Assembly: GCA_028700115.1 (NCBI GenBank) | Contig: JAQVTI010000002.1 | Coordinates: 49,821 to 81,820 of the forward strand | Length of the DNA stretch: 32,000 bases | Reading direction: 5' to 3' | Source: Candidatus Iainarchaeum sp. | GTDB taxonomy: Archaea > Iainarchaeota > Iainarchaeia > Iainarchaeales > CSSED10-239 | Translations under genes and position numbers: made by a program | The notes under the pieces: generated by a model | The model's database searches: none | What the model saw: the letters and a program-made list of their open reading frames with translations, nothing else | What the model was told of the DNA's origin: nothing | In this document: one piece after another, positions 1-30,874 of the stretch | Layout: every line of letters starts with the position of its first letter | Position numbering within the stretch: position 1 is the stretch's first letter

Positions 1-4
1 ATTT

Positions 5-370
5 ATGTATGTTTTAACAAATATCAAATTATGGCTTCATTATACAGAAATTGAAAAAAGTTGTATAACTGAAACAAAAACAGGACTTTATTTTTATCCA
101 GAGTATGCAGGTTATTCTAGTGAGAAAGCACAAAAAGATGCAGAAACTAGAGTTTTTGAAAAAAAATTAAGTAATTTTTTAGATGATTGTGGGAATTTTA
201 GATCTATATCACTTCCATATATTGATTACATACCTATTTTAGATCAAATTATAAATGATTTAAATATTACAAAAGCACCTGCATTTTATTATAATGGTAA
301 AGTGTATTATGATGTTCCTGTAGACCCAACACAAGAATTTTATGATTCATTTGGATGTATTAAAAAATAA
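5..370 (+). CDS. hypothetical protein (possibly 5'-truncated by the window edge)
   Basis: 121-codon ORF in an AT-rich background where random ORFs are short. The frame is open to position 2, so the true start may lie upstream of the window. No motif recognised. Confidence 0.4.
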   Translation: MYVLTNIKLWLHYTEIEKSCITETKTGLYFYPEYAGYSSEKAQKDAETRVFEKKLSNFLDDCGNFRSISLPYIDYIPILDQIINDLNITKAPAFYYNGKVYYDVPVDPTQEFYDSFGCIKK

Positions 371-411
371 TATTTAACGAAAAATTGTTTTAAAATATTA
401 AAAAAAATATT

Positions 412-708
412 TTGTTATATATAGCTATTGGGGTTTTAGCTTTAATAATTTTAATATTATTATTTAGCTCGGGCTCAGATAGTTTAAATAAAAAAATCTA
501 TAAAAATTTAAATAAAAATGATTGGAAGATTTATGAAGATGAACAAATAAATCTTGCAATTGCTTATCCAAATTCTTTTTCTTATGAAAATTTAGAAAAT
601 TCAACAATTTTTCCAGATTCTCAAAAACCTGATTTTTATTATACATTTGATCCAATTGTTTTATATATTTATTTATTGTTTTCTATATTTTTTAAATTAT
701 TTTGTTAG
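412..708 (+). CDS. hypothetical small membrane/secreted protein (TTG start)
   Basis: N-terminal hydrophobic segment (IAIGVLALIILILLF) followed by a W..Y....I.YP..F-type segment common in small secreted proteins. TTG start with no clear SD, and an odd hydrophobic C-terminus. It may be a decayed gene. Confidence 0.3.
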   Translation: MLYIAIGVLALIILILLFSSGSDSLNKKIYKNLNKNDWKIYEDEQINLAIAYPNSFSYENLENSTIFPDSQKPDFYYTFDPIVLYIYLLFSIFFKLFC

Positions 709-724
709 ATAGGCATTAAGTTAA

Positions 725-943
725 ATATATTTAATAGATAATAGTTTTTGGGATGTTACAGTTTTAAATTATGGTTCTTCTGGAGCAGATAATTATGGTG
801 TAACTGGAAAAACTGCAACTGAATTAAAAACACTTGTAACATATAGTGATTGGAATATTTCTACAACACAAGGAGATAGTTCTGTTATTTGGTATATTGA
901 TGATGGAAATTATTATCCTCATTTACAATGGGAGTATCAATAA
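725..943 (+). pseudogene. start-less orphan ORF resembling the C-terminal end of a large surface/adhesin protein
   Basis: 72 sense codons between TAA (722-724) and TAA (941-943) with no ATG/GTG/TTG start. Translation: ...GKTATELKTLVTYSDWNISTTQGDSSVIWYIDDGNYYPHLQWEYQ*. This matches the widespread terminal pattern T..elk....y..W.....W.i....YP.L.W seen at the ends of big extracellular proteins. Confidence 0.35.
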
Positions 944-945
944 AT

Positions 946-1596
946 TTATTTTGTTTTATTTTTGAAATTACAAAATTTATTTATTTTACAATTTCTACAA
1001 ATTGGAGAAATAGGTTTGCATATGTTTTGGCCTAACATAACAAATAAATAATTAGTTTTATTCCATAAATCTTCTGGGATTTTTTTTCTTAAAACCATTT
1101 CTGTTTCTAAAGGATTTTCGGTTTTAATAAATTCTATTCTATTAAAAATTCTGTGAACATGCGTGTCTACACAAATACCTGGAAGATTAAAGGCAACTGA
1201 TCTTACAAGATTAGCTGTTTTTCTTCCAACTCCTGGAAGTTTAATTAAATCTTCAATTTCAGAAGGTATTTGTTCATTAAATTCGTTGTTAATTACTTCT
1301 GGTAATTTTTTTAGAAATTCTGCTTTTTGTTTATAGAAACCTACTGGGTATAATAATTTTTCTAATTTTTTAATTTCTATTTTTTCTAGGTCTTTAAAAT
1401 TTTTAATTTTTTTAAAAAGTTTATTACAAACCTTTGCAGTAGTTTCATCTTTTGTTCTAGCTGAAAGAATAGTTCCAATTAAAACAAAAAATGGTTTTTT
1501 TGTTTTAACTTGTATTTGTTCTGCAAGAGGTATTGTGTAATCTTTTAGACTTTCTTCTAAAATTTCATAAACTTCATATATGTCTTTTGAGTTCAT
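946..1596 (-). CDS. nth: endonuclease III (DNA-(apurinic/apyrimidinic site) lyase / DNA glycosylase)
   Basis: HhH-GPD signature LPGVGRKTANLV and VDTHVHR Asp motif. C-terminal 4Fe-4S ligand pattern C-x6-C-x2-C-x5-C (CKPISPICRNCKINKFC). The ATG lies 2 nt after the pmbA stop, so this is the last gene of a minus-strand operon. Confidence 0.9.
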   Translation of the reverse strand: MNSKDIYEVYEILEESLKDYTIPLAEQIQVKTKKPFFVLIGTILSARTKDETTAKVCNKLFKKIKNFKDLEKIEIKKLEKLLYPVGFYKQKAEFLKKLPEVINNEFNEQIPSEIEDLIKLPGVGRKTANLVRSVAFNLPGICVDTHVHRIFNRIEFIKTENPLETEMVLRKKIPEDLWNKTNYLFVMLGQNICKPISPICRNCKINKFCNFKNKTK

Positions 1597-1598
1597 TT

Positions 1599-2900
1599 CT
1601 AAATTAATTTTCTTTTATTTAGTTTTGCAAATGAAAATAAAGAACTTCCTGAAAATTTTTGTTCTTTAGAAAACTCGCAATTTTTATAAACATCCATTAT
1701 GTTTCCTGCAAAGTTTAAATTTGTAATTGTTTCTTTATATTTTCCATTCTCAATTACTTTTCCACTATTAATTACTAATGTAAATTCTCCTGTATCAATT
1801 TTATTAGTATGCATTCCAAGTATACTATAAACTAAAATTCCTTTTTTAGTTTTTGAAACTATATCTTCAATTGATTTTTTTCCAGGTTCTTGTAAAATAT
1901 TTGTGTGTCCTGTTAAGATTTGATTAATTAAAGTATTCCTAAATCCATTTCCAGTTGGTTTTTCTGAAAACTTAAGAGCATTTTCTTGATCGTATATTTC
2001 TTTTTTGAAAACTCCTTTTTCAAATATCTTTTTTCTTGAAGTTTTAAATCCTTCATCATCAATTGCTTGGCTTCCTAAAAAATAATCTAAAAAAGGTTCT
2101 TCGTATAAGCTAAGTTTTTCTGAAAAAATTTGTTTATTTTTTTTATCTAATAAATATGATCTTCCTTTTTTTATATCTTCTCCAATACTTGCTTCTAGTA
2201 AAAATTTACTTAGAATTTGTTTGTTAACCTCAGGAGTTAAAATTATATCATATTCTCCTTTTTTTCCTACTTTTGGAGATAATTGATTATATGCATTAAA
2301 TTTTGCTTGATTAAATACATTTTTTACATTTATATCTTTTTCTTTTGTAAAAGTTTGATAATGCCATCCATTTGAAGATTTATTATTTTTTTTTGTAACA
2401 ATGTAAGTTGATAAATCTATATATGAAGATTCTTGTTTATATGAGGTATATGGATTAAAATAACTTTCATATGAATTTATTTTATTTGCTTCACCTATAT
2501 AGTTTTTAAAATATTTTTCTTTAGTTAGATTTTTTTTAATTTCTGGAATTAGATCTCTTGCATTTAGGTCTTTTATGTCTTTGTCTTGTTTTATTTTTCT
2601 TTTAGAAGTTTGATTTCCAAAATCTGTAATTAAAGTTTTTGTTTTTAATTTAGAAATTTTTAAAGTTTTTCTAATAGCTTCAAGTATATTTTTTTTAGAA
2701 ATATCTGTAATTGTAGTATCTGCAATTTTTCCTTTATTAATTGTTCTTACAAATAGTCTTTGAGATTCTTTATTTTCTACTTTATTTATATCAAATTTTT
2801 CAAAATTTATATTTTCTGAGTTTATTTCTCTATACATTATTTCAACATGCTTGTCTTCTGCTAATTTTTTACAATAATTATAAATTTCTTCTTTATTCAT
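1599..2900 (-). CDS. pmbA: PmbA/TldE-family metalloprotease partner subunit
   Basis: Family-typical segments: AIDDEGFKT, and GILVYSILGMHTNKIDTGEFTLVINSGKVIENG. It sits immediately downstream of tldD. I moved the start from the track's TTG (2915) to the ATG at 2900 (MNKEE...), which has GGAGGT (2908-2913 on the minus strand) 7 nt upstream. The ATG overlaps the tldD stop by 8 nt. Confidence 0.8.
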   Translation of the reverse strand: MNKEEIYNYCKKLAEDKHVEIMYREINSENINFEKFDINKVENKESQRLFVRTINKGKIADTTITDISKKNILEAIRKTLKISKLKTKTLITDFGNQTSKRKIKQDKDIKDLNARDLIPEIKKNLTKEKYFKNYIGEANKINSYESYFNPYTSYKQESSYIDLSTYIVTKKNNKSSNGWHYQTFTKEKDINVKNVFNQAKFNAYNQLSPKVGKKGEYDIILTPEVNKQILSKFLLEASIGEDIKKGRSYLLDKKNKQIFSEKLSLYEEPFLDYFLGSQAIDDEGFKTSRKKIFEKGVFKKEIYDQENALKFSEKPTGNGFRNTLINQILTGHTNILQEPGKKSIEDIVSKTKKGILVYSILGMHTNKIDTGEFTLVINSGKVIENGKYKETITNLNFAGNIMDVYKNCEFSKEQKFSGSSLFSFAKLNKRKLI

Positions 2901-4260
2901 GTGTACTACCTCCAATTACAACATCTTTAATTTTCATGTATGGTCCAGAGTCATCTACATTTACTGATTGACCACCTTTTCCACAATATCCTGGTTCCCA
3001 TTCATATGTGTTTCCTATGTCTTGGATGTTGTTTAGGTATTTTAATATACTTCCAGAAATTGAAGCTTGTTTGAAGTTATCAATAACTTCTCCTTTTTCA
3101 TATTTTATAGCTTGTCTTATTCCAAACATAAAAGTTCCAACTGCAGGATCTACTTGTCCTCCAAAAGGTCTTTTTAATAGGTAACCTGTAAAGTCTTTTA
3201 ATAAGTCTTTATTTTTCTTAGTTCCTTTTTTAAAATAAGTATTACTCATTCTAACAATTGGAATGTATATGTAGCTTTGAGCTCTTGCAGATCCATTTGA
3301 TTTTTCTCCAAGAGTTGTTGCAGTTTCTATATCTTTTAGATATTCATTTACAACTCCATTTTTAATTAAATATTTTGGTCTTGATTTAAATCCTTCATCA
3401 TCATATGCAAAGTAACCATGTTTTTTAAGAGTAGGGTCATCTATTAAATTTATATTTTTATTTTTAGAAACAACTTGTCCCTTTCTTAAAACACTATCCT
3501 CTAAAACTATAGCATCAGCTTCACTAGAATGCCCTATTGCTTCATGAGCTAGAAGTCCAGAAGTTTCTGAATCAATAATTACATTTGATTTTATTGCTGG
3601 ACAAAGTTTAGCATTTATTTGTTTTTTTGAAAAATTGTAATTTTCATTTATTAATTTTGTGTAATCTGTTATATTATAAGTTTCAAGTCCACCCACATTT
3701 GCAAACTTTTGATAATTACTTTCTATTTTATTATCTTTTTTTAAATTTATAAAATTTGCAATTGTGCTTGTAGGTGTTTCTTGATATATGAATGAATAGG
3801 GGCTTACAAAGTATTTTTTTAAAATTTCCTCTTTTTTAAAAAGTTTTGTGTTTTTTACATATTCTTTTGAGAAATTTTCTGAATTAATTTTTTTAAGCTC
3901 TTTAACTTTTTTTTCAATATCTTTTTCTTCAAAATTTTTATATTTAAAAATAGCTTTTGCTTTATTTTTTGAAAAGTTTTCAAGATTTATTTTTTGAGTT
4001 ATCTTTTTTGTGTTTTCTATACATTCATTAATTATTTTTTTATAATTTTCAATTTTATTAGTTGAACAAAAACCAATTTTTTTATCTAAGTAAACTCTAA
4101 TACCAATTCCATTAATTTTTTCTTTTTTAATATCTTTTACATCTTTATTTTCTATTTCAATATAAGTTAGTTCTTTTTCTTCAATTCTAAAATCATAATA
4201 ATCTAAGTTTTTTGATTCAAGAAATTTTTTAATTTCATCAATTTTTTCTTCATAATTCAT
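2893..4260 (-). CDS. tldD: TldD-family zinc metalloprotease
   Basis: HExxxH zinc motif in LLAHEAIGHSSEAD, plus the typical YDDEGF and GxC(G)KGGQ C-terminal region (PGYCGKGGQSV). 455 aa is the typical length. Confidence 0.85.
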   Translation of the reverse strand: MNYEEKIDEIKKFLESKNLDYYDFRIEEKELTYIEIENKDVKDIKKEKINGIGIRVYLDKKIGFCSTNKIENYKKIINECIENTKKITQKINLENFSKNKAKAIFKYKNFEEKDIEKKVKELKKINSENFSKEYVKNTKLFKKEEILKKYFVSPYSFIYQETPTSTIANFINLKKDNKIESNYQKFANVGGLETYNITDYTKLINENYNFSKKQINAKLCPAIKSNVIIDSETSGLLAHEAIGHSSEADAIVLEDSVLRKGQVVSKNKNINLIDDPTLKKHGYFAYDDEGFKSRPKYLIKNGVVNEYLKDIETATTLGEKSNGSARAQSYIYIPIVRMSNTYFKKGTKKNKDLLKDFTGYLLKRPFGGQVDPAVGTFMFGIRQAIKYEKGEVIDNFKQASISGSILKYLNNIQDIGNTYEWEPGYCGKGGQSVNVDDSGPYMKIKDVVIGGSTHE

Positions 4261-4364
4261 ATTTTATCATTTTATAGATTTATATATATTATTTCTATTT
4301 TTTTAGTATTTATATTAATATAGAAATATTTATATTATATTTTATTATATATTTATATATATTA

Positions 4365-4446
4365 TTTTTTTTTAATATAATTTATTTTTTTTTAAATATA
4401 ATTTATTTTTTTTTAAATATAATTTATTTTTTTAAATATAATAAAA
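4365..4446. repeat. four phased copies of T7-9 + AAATATAATTTA (20-21 bp period) in the divergent tldD / gtrA-like intergenic region
   Basis: Direct reading: T9-AATATAATTTA, T9-AAATATAATTTA, T9-AAATATAATTTA, T7-AAATATAATAAAA. Each unit contains TTTAAATATA, which fits the archaeal TATA-box consensus TTTAWATA. Confidence 0.7.
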
Positions 4447-4509
4447 TCTTTAAATAATTTTTTAAAAATAAAATAATATAATATATAATATTTTAATAAA
4501 TATGACGCT

Positions 4510-5031
4510 ATGACACAAAAAAAAATAACAGATTTTAAATATATTTCTAATAAAAAATATAGTTTTTCAAAATCTTTACTTTCTATTAAAAAAAATTCTT
4601 TTTTACATAATGTATATTATAGATTAATTGAAATTTCTATATTGTATAAATATAAAAATAGAATAAAATATGGTTTTATTTCATTAATAGGAGAATTTAC
4701 TGATATTTTTATTTTATTTATTTTAACTCATTTTTTTAATTTTTATTATTTATTTTCTGCATTAATCTCTTATTTTTGTGCAATTTTTATTAATTTTAAT
4801 TTAAATAAAAAATTCACATTTAAATATAATGAAAAAAATTTAAAAGAATATTTTTTATGTTTTCTAAAATATTTTTTAATTTCTATTGGTGGAATGATAA
4901 TTAATTTATCTCTTTTGGCATTTTTAGTAGAATTTTTTAGTATAAATTATTTAATTTCAAAATTAATTGTAAATATTATTGTTTTTATTTTTATATATAA
5001 AGGGCATTCTTTTGTTTTAAAATTAAATTAA
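4510..5031 (+). CDS. GtrA-like polytopic membrane protein (putative glycan/lipid-linked sugar handling)
   Basis: About four hydrophobic helices. The GtrA-family loop motif is INFNLNKKFTFKY (compare nF.lnr.w.F). There is a 45-aa N-terminal extension. Confidence 0.55.
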   Translation: MTQKKITDFKYISNKKYSFSKSLLSIKKNSFLHNVYYRLIEISILYKYKNRIKYGFISLIGEFTDIFILFILTHFFNFYYLFSALISYFCAIFINFNLNKKFTFKYNEKNLKEYFLCFLKYFLISIGGMIINLSLLAFLVEFFSINYLISKLIVNIIVFIFIYKGHSFVLKLN

Positions 5032-5200: not shown

Positions 5201-5674
5201 ATGAATAAAAAAGCAATTTCACCACTTATTGCAACAGTTTTGTTAATTGTTGTTGCAGTTGCATTAATTGCAATTGTTTTAAGTTGGGGAAAATCATTTA
5301 CAACACAAGGACTTTCAGAAACTGGAAATGTAGTTGATACAACTTGTACTGGTGCTACTATTACTATTCCTTCATGTAGTGTTAAAGATGGGAATATAAT
5401 ATTTTATGTAACAAATAATAGTTCTACATATGATTTTGCAACATCAGATAATTTTGTATTTGATGTAACTAGTGATACTGGGGTTTATAATGCTGATAAT
5501 AATTTAAGTACATATACTTCAGAAGCATGGGCTGGATTATCAACAGGTGCAACTGTTCAAGTATCAGCATCTTTAACAACATTAGCTGTTACAGGAAATA
5601 GTTATGATGTTGCTGTAAGATCTTCTATTTGTTCTTCTGATGCAGTTTATACATTTAAGAATTGTCATAGTTAG
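5201..5674 (+). CDS. archaeal type IV pilin-like protein (class III signal peptide, archaeal flagellin N-terminal-like domain)
   Basis: N-terminus MNKKAISPLIATVLLIVVAVALIAIVLSWGKSF is the classic K-(A/G)-x-SP-(V/L)IATVLLI prepilin-peptidase substrate motif plus a hydrophobic helix. The mature part is Ser/Thr-rich with 4 Cys. GGTGAT SD at 5189-5194. Confidence 0.8.
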   Translation: MNKKAISPLIATVLLIVVAVALIAIVLSWGKSFTTQGLSETGNVVDTTCTGATITIPSCSVKDGNIIFYVTNNSSTYDFATSDNFVFDVTSDTGVYNADNNLSTYTSEAWAGLSTGATVQVSASLTTLAVTGNSYDVAVRSSICSSDAVYTFKNCHS

Positions 5675-5800
5675 ATAATTCTTTTCTTTTTTTTTAATTA
5701 ATTTTATTGCCGGGCATATTCTTAAATATAAATTTAATGTAATATATTTATGGATTATAATTTTAATAAAAAAGCAATCTCACCATAAATTGCAACTGTT

Positions 5801-7924
5801 TTGTTAATTGTTGTTTGTGTTGCAATGGTTGTAATTATTTTAAACTGGGGAAAAATGTTTACACATGATAGTGTAAAAGTTATAGATTATGCTTCTTTTA
5901 CAGAATCTGATTTAGAAGGTTATGTTTTTGTAAAAAATATATTTGAATCAACTGATGGATCAGATAGTAAATTAATTTTAGATAATAGAAATAAATTAAA
6001 AGATGCAAATATAATTGCATATAAAATATTAGATTTAGACCCTTCTAAATCTGGAATTACAGATATTTATTATGAATATGATACTCCTGTTTTATTACAA
6101 CACGGGCATTCAAAAGATCTAAATGTTATTTGTTTTCCTTCAAATGAGTTTGATATTGAGTTTTATACATCTGATGAAAAATGTTTTAAAGTAAATGTTT
6201 TTGATTCATCTCTTTCTTGTCAATCTTGTTTAAATCTCCCATATTGTGGAGATAGTTCTTGTAATGGAGATGAGACTGCAAACACATGTTATTCTGATTG
6301 TGGAAGTTGTGGAGATGGAATTTGTACATCTGGAGAAGAAAATATGACTTCTTGTTATACAGATTGTGGAACTTGTGGAGATGGAATTTGTACATTTGGA
6401 GAAGAAAATGCTACAACTTGTTATGATGATTGTGGTGAATGTGGAAATTCTATTTTAGAAGGACCAGAGACTTGTGATTCAGATACAGAAAGTTGTACAA
6501 CTTCTGTTTCAGGAATAACTTATGTTGGAACACATACTTGTTTAGGAGATTGTTCTGCATATGGAACTTGTACTACTACTAAATCTTGTGGAGATGGAAT
6601 TTGTCAAAACACAGGTGGAGATGGAGAAACTGTAAGTAATTGTGTAGTTGATTGTCATTCTTGTGGAGATGGTATTTGTAGTGATGGTTATGAAACTGAA
6701 GTTTCTTGCCCTGCAGACTGTTTACAATATACTTGTAGTCTAGGAGATACAGATAATGGTGATGGAACTTGTACTGCTTTAATAGATGCAAGTTATGATA
6801 ATAGTTTAAAATATACCACTTCTAATTTTGATTATGATGCAACTACTGGAGTAGTTAATGGTGGTACTTATGTTTCTGTAGGTTCTTATGAATTTGGAGG
6901 TGCTGCCCCTGCATTATGTGTTTTAGAAGACACTTTAATTAATGTTTTAAGAAATGATGAAGAAAAAGAAATGTTTGTTCAAGATGTTTTATTGTCTGAT
7001 TATATTTTATCTTGGGACTTTAATCAAAATGAATATATATATGTTCCTGTTTTACAAAAATTTAATAATACTATTAATGAATACTATATTATTAATAATA
7101 AATTAAAAGTTACTTCATTACATCCAATATATATTAAAGATAAAGGATTTATTTATCCAGAAGAAATTACATATAATGATTATTTATTAAATAGTAATGG
7201 TGATTTTGAGAAAGTAAATAGTGTTAAATTTGTTGAAAATGTAGATGAAAATATTTATAATTTTGAAACAGGAAATCATTTTTATTTTGCTAATGGTTAT
7301 TTAACACATAATCCAGCACCTATGTCTCCTTATTTATATTATATACATAGATCTTATTTCTTTTTTGATACTTCTTATATTTCTAGTTATGGAACTGTAA
7401 ATTCTGCAGATTTTAAATTTACTGTTAGTCAATATGATGAAATTACTAGTTATAGTTTTATTTTACAAAAAACAGATAATTCAACTTATCCTCATAATCC
7501 TTTACAAACTGGAGATTTTGATGAATCTTATTATAGTGGTAATTTAGGATCTATTTCAAATTCTAGTTTTGGTTCTCCTTCTATTGTTAGTTTAAATTCA
7601 ACAGGACTTACAGAAGTTACAAATAGTTTAGGAGATACTTTTAAATTTGTTTTAAGATCTGATTGTGATGTAGGTCATTCTTGTGATGATGAGCATAAAT
7701 TAGCTTATATTTATAGATATAATTCTGCAAATCCTCCTCAATTAGAAATAACTTATTCCCCTACATCTCAAGTATACTGTGGAAATGGTGTTGTTGAGAC
7801 AGGTGAAGATTGTGAATGTGGTGTGGGTGCTTTTGATATGGGTAATGTAGGGGAAAATAGTTGTGTAAATTATTCTTCTGATACTTGTATAAATTGTGTT
7901 TATACTGGTGGATTTGGTAATTAA
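5801..7924 (+). CDS. large Cys-rich surface protein with a pilin-type N-terminus (interrupted), an embedded Hint/BIL-like domain and a C-terminal cargo domain
   Basis: 707 uninterrupted codons in AT-rich DNA. In-frame upstream ATG at 5750 gives MDYNFNKKAISP*IATVLLIVV..., the same class III signal as the preceding gene but with TAA at 5786-5788. There are repeated CGDGIC...C..DC modules (6245-6721), a Hint domain (6917-7312) and a terminal CGNGVVETGEDCECG motif. The TTG start at 5801 is the track's call and is probably not the biological N-terminus. Confidence 0.75.
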   Translation: MLIVVCVAMVVIILNWGKMFTHDSVKVIDYASFTESDLEGYVFVKNIFESTDGSDSKLILDNRNKLKDANIIAYKILDLDPSKSGITDIYYEYDTPVLLQHGHSKDLNVICFPSNEFDIEFYTSDEKCFKVNVFDSSLSCQSCLNLPYCGDSSCNGDETANTCYSDCGSCGDGICTSGEENMTSCYTDCGTCGDGICTFGEENATTCYDDCGECGNSILEGPETCDSDTESCTTSVSGITYVGTHTCLGDCSAYGTCTTTKSCGDGICQNTGGDGETVSNCVVDCHSCGDGICSDGYETEVSCPADCLQYTCSLGDTDNGDGTCTALIDASYDNSLKYTTSNFDYDATTGVVNGGTYVSVGSYEFGGAAPALCVLEDTLINVLRNDEEKEMFVQDVLLSDYILSWDFNQNEYIYVPVLQKFNNTINEYYIINNKLKVTSLHPIYIKDKGFIYPEEITYNDYLLNSNGDFEKVNSVKFVENVDENIYNFETGNHFYFANGYLTHNPAPMSPYLYYIHRSYFFFDTSYISSYGTVNSADFKFTVSQYDEITSYSFILQKTDNSTYPHNPLQTGDFDESYYSGNLGSISNSSFGSPSIVSLNSTGLTEVTNSLGDTFKFVLRSDCDVGHSCDDEHKLAYIYRYNSANPPQLEITYSPTSQVYCGNGVVETGEDCECGVGAFDMGNVGENSCVNYSSDTCINCVYTGGFGN
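6917..7312 (+). other. Hint (intein/BIL-like) autoprocessing domain, 132 aa, inside the 5801-7924 CDS
   Basis: Block A: C-VLEDTLINVL, with Cys1 at 6917-6919. Block B: VTSLHPIY (TxxH). Terminal blocks: IYNFETGNHFYFANGYLTHN, ending His-Asn at 7307-7312. The next residue is Pro (7313-7315), not Cys/Ser/Thr. Mini-intein size with no endonuclease insert. Confidence 0.75.
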
Positions 7925-27001: not shown

Positions 27002-30000
27002 ATGTTATTTAATAAAAAATTTTTTGGAATTTTATTAGTTTTTATATTTACTTTTTTTGCTTTTTCTGTAAATATTTTTGCAGAAGCAACAGAATGGACT
27101 GGTGGAGATGTTGGTTTAAAGATTAACTCTTTAAAATTTAATGAAGATACTAATGTTCTTGATTTTAATTTTTCTGTAAATTCTAATAAACCTATTTACT
27201 GTGCTTTTGTTTTTGATAAAGATATTAGTCCAGAAATAGATTCTTTTTTATCTAAAAATATGTATGATAAATCAGATACTGTTTCTATGGTATTTAATAC
27301 TCCTATAAAAGTTATAAAATATAATACAGATATGTTTTCTCCAACTAATGCAGATGAATTTTTTATAAAATCATATAATTTAAATGCTGTTAATTCTAAA
27401 TTTTTAGATTTATCAAAATTTTCTAAAGTTGCTTTATATTGTGTTCAATATATAGGAGATTCTAAAGCGGATTATATGGGTAGTTCAAAAAAATTAATAG
27501 GTACTAATAAAGGATTACGAGAATATATTTCTGATAACTTAAATAAAGAAGATGATTCTTTTAAGAAAGGGACTTTGTTTAATAGAAATTCATTATTTAG
27601 AACTGAATTACATATTTTTGAAGAACCTAATCAAGAAGCTTCTAAGTTTATTTTAAATTTAGATGATTCTGATGAAACAGAAGATGAAACTGAAAAAGAA
27701 GATGATTCTAAAAATAAAATAACTACACAAACTTCATCTAAACCTATTAATCACATTTCATTTTTAGAAGTTTCTTCAAATAATGAAAATGCAATTTGTT
27801 CAAATGGAATTTGTTATATAAATACAGATTCTACAGATTCTTTTAATATTAAAAATCAAGTTAATTTTGATGATGGAAAAGAATATTTAGTTCATACAAG
27901 AATTTTATCAATTGGTATTTTACAATCTAGTTTAGAAGATTATATTTTAAATACATTTGAATATTCAAATAATGCAGCTGGGAATTTAACTGAAAATATA
28001 AATTTTATAGATAATGCTTATTTTAAAGGAAATTTAGATGAATTTAATTTAGAAGGAAAACTTGGTTCAAATCAAGTTATTTTAGTTGCAACAAGTTATA
28101 AAACAGATAATGGTTCAACTTATACAAATTATAGTATTTATATGGGAGTAGATAATTCTGAGTTTTCAAAAATTTTATTATATGAAGGAAATAGAAGTAT
28201 AATAAATGCATCTTGTCCTGATTGTTTAGGATTTTATGTTTCTTCAAGTATTATTCCTAAAGTTAAAGATACTTTAGAAAATACTTTAAATATAGAAAAA
28301 TTAGAAAATGTTTTAGAAGGATTAACTTGTAGTTATTCTCAAACTCCAATTGATCCTAAAGAAACTAAAGCAGTTCAAATTCCTGGATGTGATATTAGTA
28401 CTTTAGATCCTAAAGGATATCAAAAATGTGTAACTGATACTTTATTAGAATATAAGGACGTTAGACCAATTCAATATGGAGATAATTATATTTGTGAAGA
28501 AACAGAAGAAGTTTTTGAACCTTCTGGAGATTTAATTGATTGTTTTACAATGATTAAACTTTCTGATAAATCTGTAAGAGATGATGATAGAAATTTTATT
28601 TCTGATTCTGATAAAAATTTTGAAACAATTATAGATGGTAAGAAAAAATCAAGTTTAACTTTTTTAGAAAAATATGATGATTCTAGGATTAAAGTTATAT
28701 TTGATGATATTACTTCTAAAATGACATTTTCTGATGAAGAAAAAGCTGTGTTTTGGGCAAACATAATGGAAGAATCTGGATTTAAAAATAAATCTAGTGA
28801 CAATGGTGAGTCTGTGTCTTTATCTCAAGTTTATATTCCTTATTGGAATGATGAAGATGAATATAATATGATTGCAGATTATATGAAATTAATTAATACT
28901 GATATGACTTATCAAATTTATAAAACAGATTATATTGATACAAATTTAAAAGATATAGAAAAAAGTCTTGAAGTTGGAGCTGCAATCTTTTTATATATGA
29001 GAGATAAAATTGCAGGTAATTTTAACTGTTTAAATGAAAAAACTAGAGAATATGTAGATTCTCCTAATAGGTGTGATAAAGACGCAAATAGTTGTCTAGC
29101 AATTAATACTGCTTTTGTTACATTTTATTTGTATAATGCAGGTGAAGATGAATTACCTGATTTTACAAAAGGAATTCCAGAAGTAGGATCAGAGTATACT
29201 ATTAAGTTATATACTATAGATGAGATGAAAAATGCAAAAGATTCTAAATCAGATGGAATTTTACCTCATCATATTGTTTTGTCATCTACAAGAAAAGTTG
29301 GACATTATTTAGCATATAAAGAACATTATTATGGAGTTTCTGTTTCAAGTACATCTGCTAATAATTCAACTACAACAGGAAGTTCTGTAAAAAATGAAAC
29401 TACAACAGGAAGTTCAGCTTCAAATCAAACAAGTACTTCTTCAGAAACTGTTGAAAAAGAACTTGAAGAATTAAAAAATCCTGAAAATAATTATAGTGGA
29501 GATCCTGAAAATTATATGACAATAGGTGGATCTATTGATAATTTTTTAAAAGAAGTTAATCCTAAGAGATTTCCTGATCCTGCTTTGAGAGAATGTATTG
29601 CTAATCATTATCAATTAGGTGGTTTAGAGAATATAGAATCATTAGATTGTAGTTCTTTTCCTATTAAAAATTTACAAGGAATTGAATATTTAGAATATTT
29701 GAAGATAGTTAATTTAGATTCTGGAGATGAAATTGAAAATTTAAATTTTTTATCTAATTTAGAATATTTAAAAAAGCTTGATATTGATTCTTATGGTCAA
29801 GTAGATACTTCTTTTTTATTAAATTTATCTAGTTTAAATTATTTATCTTTAAGAGGTATAGAAAATTTAGATGTTTCCCATTTAGTAAATTTAAATAATT
29901 TAAATACTCTTATTCTTAATTATAGTAGTCTTATAAATTATTCTGAATTATCTAATTTAACAAATTTATCTGAATTTGATGCAATGAGTTCTAATATAAC

Positions 30001-30874
30001 TGATATTTCATTTATATCTAATTTAACAAAGTTAGAAATTTTAAATTTATGTTATAATTCTATTACTGATATATCTCCTATATCAAATTTAACAAATTTA
30101 AATCATTTGAATCTTCGTAGTTGTTCTACAATTACTGATATTTCTTCTTTATCAGGTTTAACTAATTTATCTTCTCTTGATGTAAGTAATAATGATATTT
30201 CGGATTTAAGTCCTTTATTTGGTATTTCAAATTTAAATTATTTAGATGTTATATCTAATAATCTAGATGCAGAAGATATTAAAGAAGTTGAAAATAATTT
30301 GACTGGATTATTACATTTTTATCATGATGAATTTGAAGAAACAGGTACTGTTAGTACTCAAAATAATTCAAATTCAAATTCAAAATTAGAATTAGATTTA
30401 GAAAATAAATTCCCTGATGAACAATTTAGATTATGTGTTAGTGATATTTTAGCTAAATCTACTGTGACTGATCCAAATTATATATTTTTAACAATTACAG
30501 AATTAGATTGTCAAAGTTATGGTGTTAAATCTATAAAAGGAATTAATTATTTTCCAAATTTAACTACTTTAAATTTAGCAGGTAATGAAATTAGTGATAT
30601 TAATCCATTAAAAGCATTATATAAATTAGAATATTTAGATTTAAAAGTAAATGAACTAAATAATAATAGTTGTGAAAAAGAATCTTGGAGAATATTTAGT
30701 AATGTGGATATTGATAATTGTTTTGATCATATGTCTAATTTAAAATCTTTAGATATTAGTCTTAATATTAATCTTGGGGAAACTGCTAATAAAGAAATTT
30801 TAGAAGATTTGCCTGAAAATTCTAAGTTAACTTGTACTGAAAATGCTATTACTAAAATTTATATTAATAAATAA
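27002..30874 (+). CDS. 1290-aa secreted multidomain protein: Sec signal peptide, unknown N-terminal domains, SLT/GH23-like segment, Ser/Thr linker, two internalin-like LRR blocks
   Basis: Signal peptide FGILLVFIFTFFAFSVNIFA|EA. AGGAGA SD. Acidic patch DDSDETEDETEKEDDS. ES...SLSQ...YNAG motif set (28721-29170). S/T linker with a duplicated TTTGSS unit (about 29340-29450). 22-residue LRRs of the type LTNLxxLxLxxNxITDISPLSN (29570-30300 and 30410-30871), each preceded by an FPD...C cap. Confidence 0.85.
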   Translation: MLFNKKFFGILLVFIFTFFAFSVNIFAEATEWTGGDVGLKINSLKFNEDTNVLDFNFSVNSNKPIYCAFVFDKDISPEIDSFLSKNMYDKSDTVSMVFNTPIKVIKYNTDMFSPTNADEFFIKSYNLNAVNSKFLDLSKFSKVALYCVQYIGDSKADYMGSSKKLIGTNKGLREYISDNLNKEDDSFKKGTLFNRNSLFRTELHIFEEPNQEASKFILNLDDSDETEDETEKEDDSKNKITTQTSSKPINHISFLEVSSNNENAICSNGICYINTDSTDSFNIKNQVNFDDGKEYLVHTRILSIGILQSSLEDYILNTFEYSNNAAGNLTENINFIDNAYFKGNLDEFNLEGKLGSNQVILVATSYKTDNGSTYTNYSIYMGVDNSEFSKILLYEGNRSIINASCPDCLGFYVSSSIIPKVKDTLENTLNIEKLENVLEGLTCSYSQTPIDPKETKAVQIPGCDISTLDPKGYQKCVTDTLLEYKDVRPIQYGDNYICEETEEVFEPSGDLIDCFTMIKLSDKSVRDDDRNFISDSDKNFETIIDGKKKSSLTFLEKYDDSRIKVIFDDITSKMTFSDEEKAVFWANIMEESGFKNKSSDNGESVSLSQVYIPYWNDEDEYNMIADYMKLINTDMTYQIYKTDYIDTNLKDIEKSLEVGAAIFLYMRDKIAGNFNCLNEKTREYVDSPNRCDKDANSCLAINTAFVTFYLYNAGEDELPDFTKGIPEVGSEYTIKLYTIDEMKNAKDSKSDGILPHHIVLSSTRKVGHYLAYKEHYYGVSVSSTSANNSTTTGSSVKNETTTGSSASNQTSTSSETVEKELEELKNPENNYSGDPENYMTIGGSIDNFLKEVNPKRFPDPALRECIANHYQLGGLENIESLDCSSFPIKNLQGIEYLEYLKIVNLDSGDEIENLNFLSNLEYLKKLDIDSYGQVDTSFLLNLSSLNYLSLRGIENLDVSHLVNLNNLNTLILNYSSLINYSELSNLTNLSEFDAMSSNITDISFISNLTKLEILNLCYNSITDISPISNLTNLNHLNLRSCSTITDISSLSGLTNLSSLDVSNNDISDLSPLFGISNLNYLDVISNNLDAEDIKEVENNLTGLLHFYHDEFEETGTVSTQNNSNSNSKLELDLENKFPDEQFRLCVSDILAKSTVTDPNYIFLTITELDCQSYGVKSIKGINYFPNLTTLNLAGNEISDINPLKALYKLEYLDLKVNELNNNSCEKESWRIFSNVDIDNCFDHMSNLKSLDISLNINLGETANKEILEDLPENSKLTCTENAITKIYINK
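28721..29170 (+). other. candidate lytic transglycosylase (SLT / GH23 lysozyme-like) domain within the 27002-30874 CDS
   Basis: IMEESGFKNKSSDNGESVSLSQV has E-S and then Q exactly 17 residues after the Ser, as in E. coli Slt70 (ESAWNPKVKSPVGASGLMQ). Downstream are D.E..L.VGAAIFLY and LYNAG (compare AAYNAG). The spacers between motifs are longer than in canonical SLT domains. Confidence 0.4.

Follow-up and report, generated by a model that had tools for sequence, protein, structure and literature searches.

Overview of the locus

We analyzed a stretch of 32,000 nucleotides from the DPANN archaeon Candidatus Iainarchaeum sp. (contig JAQVTI010000002.1, positions 49,821 to 81,820 of the forward strand; hereafter the window), with a focus on the gene at window positions 5801 to 7924, which encodes a Cys-rich, pilin-type protein with an embedded HINT domain. 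The protein is already deposited at NCBI as 'Hint domain-containing protein' [Candidatus Iainarchaeum sp.] under two accessions with identical sequence (MDD3178378.1 and MDD3975813.1), so the module as such is no new finding. New here are the apparent nesting of this module within a DNRLRE-like surface domain of a DPANN archaeon, a parallel nested case in a second protein, and the disrupted signal sequence of the gene. The gene comprises the following features, the HINT domain being of the bacterial intein-like (BIL) kind:

5801..7924, + strand: open reading frame (ORF) as called by gene callers; TTG start, 707 aa (MDD3178378.1 / MDD3975813.1)
6209..6736, + strand: Cys-rich stalk with five CG[DN][GS]xC repeats, holding 29 of the 42 Cys of the protein
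6737..6916, + strand: N-terminal part of the putative host domain, about 60 aa, ending in the loop ...VSVGSYEFGGAAPAL; collinear with HINT-less homologues
6917..7312, + strand: HINT (BIL-like) domain, 132 aa; translation, Pfam, phmmer against PDB sequences, AlphaFold2 (AF2), and Foldseek
6917-6919, + strand: Cys1 of the HINT domain (Cys373)
7112-7123, + strand: block B of the HINT domain, TSLH (Thr438-x-x-His441)
7250-7270, + strand: block F of the HINT domain, NIYNFET
7307-7312, + strand: terminal His-Asn of the HINT domain (His503-Asn504)
7313-7315, + strand: +1 residue Pro505, not Cys, Ser, or Thr
7313..7762, + strand: C-terminal part of the putative host domain, about 150 aa, PAPMSPYL-YYIHRSYFFFDTS...QLEITYSP
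7775..7921, + strand: C-terminal Cys-rich tail, YCGNGVVETGEDCECG..., 6 Cys

The embedded segment is an intact HINT domain

Positions 6917 to 7312 encode a genuine HINT domain with intact catalytic residues. On the + strand, the interval comprises exactly 132 codons (CVLEDTLINV...VTSLHPIY...NIYNFETGNHFYFANGYLTHN), and its C-terminal end reads NHFYFANGYLTHN with the closing residues ...GYLTHN. It is preceded by ...AAPAL, and Asn504 is followed by Pro505, from which the chain continues as PAPMS. An endonuclease-sized insert is absent from the translated segment, and Cys1 is its sole Cys. The GC content at third codon positions (GC3 = 0.05) is the same as in the host genes, which argues for a long-resident insertion.

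Profile and structure comparisons were in agreement with this assignment. The Pfam family PT-HINT (PF07591) matched the isolated 132-aa segment with an E-value of 1.2e-6 and 29.3 bits, which passes the curated cut-off of 27.7 bits, and the full protein with 25.4 bits, slightly below it. A phmmer search of PDB sequences retrieved the NrdJ-1 intein (E = 4.9e-6), the BIL domain 2lwy (E = 3.1e-5), and the Spl DnaX mini-intein (E = 6e-3). With a 30-sequence alignment as input, AF2 returned an all-beta model (predicted local distance difference test score, pLDDT, 87.1; predicted template modeling score, pTM, 0.79). When this model was compared to the PDB by Foldseek, the top match was BIL 2lwy (E = 2.5e-8; template modeling (TM) scores 0.73/0.82; root-mean-square deviation 2.2 Å), followed by the Tetrahymena BUBL BIL2 (E = 3.6e-8; TM 0.71) and then by mini-inteins, with Hedgehog (1at0) at rank 36. 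Every one of the best 50 PDB matches was a BIL, intein, or Hedgehog HINT structure.

An initial annotation, made from the DNA sequence alone, had described a mini HINT domain of 132 aa with Cys1, TxxH, and His-Asn, lacking both a homing endonuclease and, owing to Pro after the terminal Asn, a +1 nucleophile, and had called it BIL-like. Translation, alignment, Pfam, AF2, and Foldseek bear out this description: the segment consists of the 132 codons only, Pro505 is confirmed in the translation, and the closest solved structures are BIL domains (2lwy and Tetrahymena BIL2). The profile and fold checks that it had named yielded a significant PF07591 match and a modeled HINT fold. The alignment of this HINT with 29 relatives shows no variation at Cys1, the block-B Thr, or the penultimate His. 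Pro at +1 was found in none of the relatives.

The HINT domain appears to interrupt a single DNRLRE-like domain

The 156 residues after Asn504 retrieved 711 homologues at E ≤ 1e-3 from a library of 1.84 billion proteins, and nearly all of these matches start at query residue 8-9, i.e., at the YYIHRSYFFFDTS motif (YYIHRSY). In the best 150 of the 711, which were inspected, about 55 conserved residues (..SDG...Y.....tG.v....l.vGQ...) always precede this motif, also in single-domain proteins of about 210 aa. The 60 residues upstream of Cys1 (GDTDNGDGTCTALIDASYDN...TGVVNGGTYVSVGSYEFGG) match that conserved stretch, and the N-terminal part aligns with the region directly upstream of the YxIxRgxxyFDTS core in HINT-less homologues. 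When the HINT was deleted in silico and the flanks were joined, BLASTP aligned them with protein P0050 as one segment across the junction (query 2-222, subject 211-422, E = 6e-29), and likewise with P0024 (E = 1e-26). A MAFFT alignment of the joined flanks with 19 family members extended over the whole domain, the sole difference being a loop at AAPAL|PAPMSP that is longer by about 11 residues. The insertion is thus not traceless but imprecise. None of the 149 other representatives (the best 150 including the protein itself) carries a HINT at this site.

Judged from these alignments, the HINT is nested in a loop of a single DNRLRE-like surface domain, between the strands '...VG' and 'YYIHRSYFFFDTS'. 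The initial annotation had placed it after a Cys-rich stalk and before a C-terminal cargo domain; instead, the two flanks correspond to parts of one domain that are contiguous in HINT-less homologues.

DNRLRE domains are modules of about 200 aa in archaeal and bacterial surface proteins, with the alginate-binding CBM96 as a relative (PMC2447325, PMC9971899). The host domain resembles them in its size of about 200 aa and in its occurrence in a cell-surface protein, but differs in its score and motifs. The NCBIfam model DNRLRE_dom (NF033679) matched with 16.3 bits, under the curated cut-off of 34 (E = 0.008; profile positions 31-164 of 164). The match of HINT-less members to this profile starts upstream of the junction; that of the window protein begins at profile position 31, directly after the HINT. 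Ten family members scored between 16 and 62 bits against the same profile, and two of them exceeded the cut-off (P0004 with 61.8 bits and P0005 with 35.9 bits). The subfamily is marked by the motifs YxIxRgxxyFDTS and TYPHxPL and falls mostly below the DNRLRE cut-off, and the C-terminal part scored 128 bits against the family hidden Markov model. On sequence grounds, we assign the host-domain family to a distinct subfamily, a distant branch of the DNRLRE cell-surface domain. A search of PDB sequences with the host-domain profile gave no match, and no Pfam model was found for the domain.

These results bear on two further explanations. In the first, the segment would be a PT-HINT of a polymorphic toxin, releasing a C-terminal toxin by autoproteolysis. 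PT-HINT (PF07591) is the best Pfam family here and the top-scoring curated family for this HINT (29.3 bits). However, the HINT lies inside a binding domain and is followed by the larger DNRLRE-like part and the Cys-rich tail, with no Pfam match to a toxin, and the next gene is gatD rather than an immunity gene. We rejected this explanation as very improbable. In the second, the segment would be a canonical class 1 mini-intein that splices via a +1 nucleophile. Nesting in a conserved domain, the set of Cys1, TxxH, and His-Asn, and the mini-inteins among the close structural matches would fit. Against it stand Pro at +1, with the first Ser following only at +5, a loop that exceeds its counterpart in homologues by about 11 residues, a host without housekeeping function, and the lack of a homing endonuclease. 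Barring a sequence error at 7313-7315, the +1 residue refutes canonical splicing, which was rejected as well and has next to no chance of being correct.

As suggested by the initial annotation, the host looks like an extracellular, Cys-rich, non-housekeeping protein; it has a DNRLRE-like surface domain and very few full-length homologues. Stalks comparable to that at 6209 to 6736 were found in proteins P0002 and P0050 and in DPANN and candidate phyla radiation (CPR) loci (L002-L006). P0050 is built like the window protein overall but lacks the HINT: a hydrophobic, pilin-like segment at its N-terminus is followed by a CGDGxC stalk and the DNRLRE-like domain. The tail at 7775 to 7921 had no Pfam match. 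Its YCGNGVVETGEDCECG sequence resembles the CGDGxxxxGExCDDGN repeats of surface proteins with a CGDGxC stalk from CPR (Peribacteria) and other metagenomic sources (L006, L010).

Relatives of the HINT domain

A profile built from this HINT and its first two relatives retrieved 42 proteins, all but one of which carry PF07591. The closest relative is a surface protein of 2064 aa from a JGI metagenome (P0071), with Ser at position 1 and His-Asn followed by Gln. Its HINT (region of residues 991-1290) is also nested, in this case in the loop before the last strand of another conserved surface domain; two proteins that lack a HINT, P0021 (E = 1e-17) and P0005 (E = 5e-13), align with the joined flanks across the junction. 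The eight residues following His-Asn are alike in the two proteins (QPVCPSYL in P0071, PAPMSPYL here), a hint that a short tail belongs to the inserted unit. The window protein and P0071 are the two independent nested cases that were found.

Other members of the clade are arranged differently. Protein P0002 has a CGDGxC stalk followed by GGGG|C...HN|A and a short tail. In the wider clade, a first group consists of small secreted proteins or the C-termini of large ones, where the tail measures 4-10 residues, a second group of tandem HINT arrays, and a third group of ends of phage-like proteins. Cys, Ser, or Thr at +1 occurs almost nowhere in the clade, and His-Arg replaces His-Asn in some members. 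Nested copies are thus the exception by sequence comparison, and the common layout of the clade would need the N-terminal reaction alone. A search with the HINT only gave no homologue in the word-indexed search, and a query of the 398-aa region matched just two proteins.

Among the small secreted proteins, one family (P0153-P0192; loci L010, L013, L016, and L021) has a signal peptide, a Cys-rich N-terminal part, a Gly run, CFLAGT...VHN or VHR, and a tail of 4-10 aa; in the VHR members, the block-B His is replaced by Gln as well. Tandem arrays comprise five HINT domains in L012 (frame 2-4726) and three in each of L014 and L015 (frames 883-3549 and 968-3634). In the latter two, the HINT domains are spaced by 2-4 residues (HN|KG|C, HN|KGGG|C), and the array is followed by a transmembrane segment and a large C-terminal region.

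These layouts bring up an alternative in which, similar to Hedgehog, only the N-terminal junction would react. The thioester at Leu372-Cys373 would be hydrolyzed or passed to a Lys, glycan, lipid, or host-surface molecule, and the Asn504-Pro505 bond would stay intact. Head, stalk, and the first quarter of the domain would then be released or attached elsewhere, with the HINT remaining on the C-terminal part. Most relatives are C-terminal HINT domains with very short tails or with His-Arg, which is the layout for N-terminal cleavage or transfer. Furthermore, Pro at +1 is unique to this protein among the aligned relatives and might disfavor the C-terminal step. The second-best structural match, Tetrahymena BIL2, moves its N-extein onto Lys amines and thereby makes isopeptides (PMC8616854). 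However, the penultimate His and the terminal Asn are intact, a one-sided cut would leave a domain of 132 aa hanging from a broken host domain, and no acceptor can be named. We regard a reaction confined to the N-terminal junction as doubtful.

A nonsense codon interrupts the pilin-type signal

As encoded, the pilin-type signal of the HINT gene is broken. The features concerned are:

5750..5851, + strand: remnant of an archaeal class III (prepilin-type) signal, MDYNFNKKAISP and IATVLLIVVCVAMVVIILNWGK on either side of the stop; ATG at 5750
5786-5788, + strand: in-frame TAA, codon 13 of the signal; Leu (CTT) in the paralogue
5201..5674, + strand: upstream paralogous pilin-like gene, 157 aa, with an intact class III signal (MNKKAISPLIATVLLIVV...)

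The paralogue matched TIGR02537, the archaellin/type IV pilin N-terminal domain, with 28.3 bits (E = 8.8e-7; cut-off 20) and showed weak similarity to UpsA; it may encode a major subunit partner of the large HINT protein. With the TAA read as Leu, the HINT gene reached 13.6 bits against TIGR02537 and 16.6 bits against UpsA. The class III signal that the initial annotation had assigned to the N-terminus of the protein therefore holds only if the TAA is ignored, and even then at a score below the cut-off. Gene callers place the start of the protein downstream of the TAA.

Including the window, four assemblies contain the same TAA; it was found with zero mismatches in contig JAQUYT010000030.1 of GCA_028691725.1 and in Logan contigs of SRR22315503 and SRR22315505, which argues against a one-off assembly error. 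Recoding of the stop codon was considered and rejected, as TAA is the ordinary terminator of 15 of the 22 ORFs in the window. We conclude that the TAA either arose very recently as a nonsense mutation or is a variant within the population, and the protein may currently be neither made nor exported in the sequenced population.

It could be argued from this that the HINT is an inactive relic in a dying gene, i.e., that the nonsense codon in the signal peptide leaves the protein unexported or unmade and the HINT idle in vivo in this population. The TAA is an ordinary stop and is shared by the window, the contig of a GenBank metagenome-assembled genome, and two Logan assemblies of different runs. 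The remaining N-terminus, MLIVVCVAMVVIIL, offers little length for a membrane anchor, and orthologue searches found none. On the other hand, the frame remains open for 712 codons past the TAA, and the catalytic residues of the HINT are all intact. At the base composition of the window (23% GC), so long an open frame would arise by chance with a probability of about 2e-31. Any inactivation would therefore be very recent and irrelevant to the past action of the module, and low-level read-through or reversion is possible. In our view, an idle relic is an unlikely explanation.

Proposed processing of the host domain

Based on our analysis, we propose with a probability of roughly 50% that the segment is a type-A-BIL-like autoprocessing HINT domain nested in its host domain, from which it is excised, with the host domain being either religated or left as two chains. 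The residues for the reactions at both junctions are all present (Cys373, Thr438/His441, and His503-Asn504). BILs lack a +1 nucleophile, form no branched intermediate, and mostly perform N- and C-terminal cleavage, and type A BILs, which bear His-Asn, can splice by thioester formation, Asn cyclization, and aminolysis by the freed amine (PMC4031507, PMC7664689).

For the window protein, we envisage that the HINT, along with a few linker residues, was inserted into a surface loop of the beta-rich DNRLRE-like domain of a Cys-rich, pilin-type protein. After folding, Cys373 would undergo an N-S acyl shift at the Leu372-Cys373 bond, helped by Thr438 and His441, to give a thioester. Asn504 would cyclize with the help of His503 and thereby break the Asn504-Pro505 bond; with Pro at +1, no branched intermediate would be expected. 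Two outcomes can be envisioned. The HINT may be excised with religation, the freed amine of Pro505 attacking the thioester as proposed for type A BILs, which would yield a Leu372-Pro505 bond. Alternatively, it may be excised without religation, in which case the host domain would consist of two chains kept together by its own beta-sheet. Excision appears most probable because the insert interrupts a folded domain and because a second related HINT does likewise elsewhere.

Several observations weigh against excision. We infer cleavage at both junctions, and likewise the dominant product, from BIL chemistry only. As in intein expression systems, Pro at +1 may slow Asn cyclization or aminolysis; no account of such an effect turned up in literature searches, and none of the 29 aligned relatives has this residue. 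The relatives are mostly C-terminal or tandem, some with His-Arg, and the usual role of the clade may be N-terminal cleavage only. Searches for a HINT-bearing orthologue found none; genome contigs gave matches to the stalk alone and metagenome contigs gave none. With the TAA in the signal peptide of four assemblies, the gene may be a fresh pseudogene. Finally, the nested geometry is seen in alignments, and single-sequence AF2 of residues 310-660 reached a pLDDT of only 30.

A broader and quite speculative idea, to which we give little credence, is that this HINT clade represents an 'extracellular intein' of DPANN and CPR surface proteins that lands in loops of beta-domains. It would either splice without a +1 nucleophile or produce a two-chain or thioester-armed adhesin, able to bond covalently with a host-cell or pilus component.

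Comparison with known HINT systems

Among known systems, we compared the segment to type A BILs, Tetrahymena BIL2, and class 1 mini-inteins. It shares with the type A BIL of C. thermocellum (2lwy) the HINT fold, the N-terminal Cys, TxxH, the 'YNF' of block F, His-Asn, the lack of Cys, Ser, or Thr at +1, and a secreted or surface host without housekeeping function; 2lwy is also the best structural match and among the best PDB sequence matches. In contrast to type A BILs, it occurs in a DPANN archaeon, lies inside a folded, widely conserved domain instead of a variable linker, and has Pro at +1. With regard to location, the host appears to be secreted and as a whole shows little conservation, yet the insertion point is within a conserved folded domain. 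Assignment to type A is meant here in the sense of the residue definition (PMC4031507, PMC7664689) together with similarity to 2lwy.

The Tetrahymena BUBL BIL2 (6y75/6tmm) also belongs to the BILs; it carries Cys1 and a terminal Asn and is active although it lacks a +1 nucleophile (PMC8616854). However, BIL2 is located between ubiquitin-like domains and joins the upstream one to Lys, whereas the flanks here are halves of one surface domain. Class 1 mini-inteins (NrdJ-1, Ssp DnaB, Spl DnaX) are similar in fold, size, catalytic blocks, and insertion into a conserved domain with contiguous flanks. They differ in that the segment described here lacks a +1 nucleophile, resides in an extracellular host rather than a replication or repair enzyme, and was inserted imprecisely, with linker residues.

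Other genes in the window

Among the other products of the window (23% GC) are GatD and GatE, a subunit of the thermosome, and several aminoacyl-tRNA synthetases, a gene content that marks the organism as an archaeon. The NCBI records of the HINT protein put it in the DPANN phylum Iainarchaeota. A gene for a GtrA-family membrane protein (4510-5031) lies in a stretch of 11% GC (4001-5000), the minimum of the window. Two paralogues of TldD/PmbA-family metallopeptidases are adjacent and overlapping at 1599-4260 on the - strand. A protein of 1290 aa with leucine-rich repeats (LRR_4, EndoS-type LRR; 27002-30874) is probably another surface protein.

Implications

BIL and PT-HINT domains are known as self-cleaving modules of bacterial secreted proteins, where they usually reside in linkers or directly before toxin domains. 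Here, the same HINT chemistry appears to be set within the folded binding domain that a surface protein carries in an archaeon of the episymbiotic type (DPANN), and a related bacterial-type protein, P0071, shows the equal arrangement in a different domain. If inactive, the module would be a well-documented HINT carried in a recently disabled pilin-like gene. If active, it would represent one of two things: natural nucleophile-free splicing of an extracellular protein, of value in the design of protein ligation tools, or a built-in switch of an adhesin domain to a two-chain or reactive form, of relevance to the attachment of DPANN archaea to their hosts.

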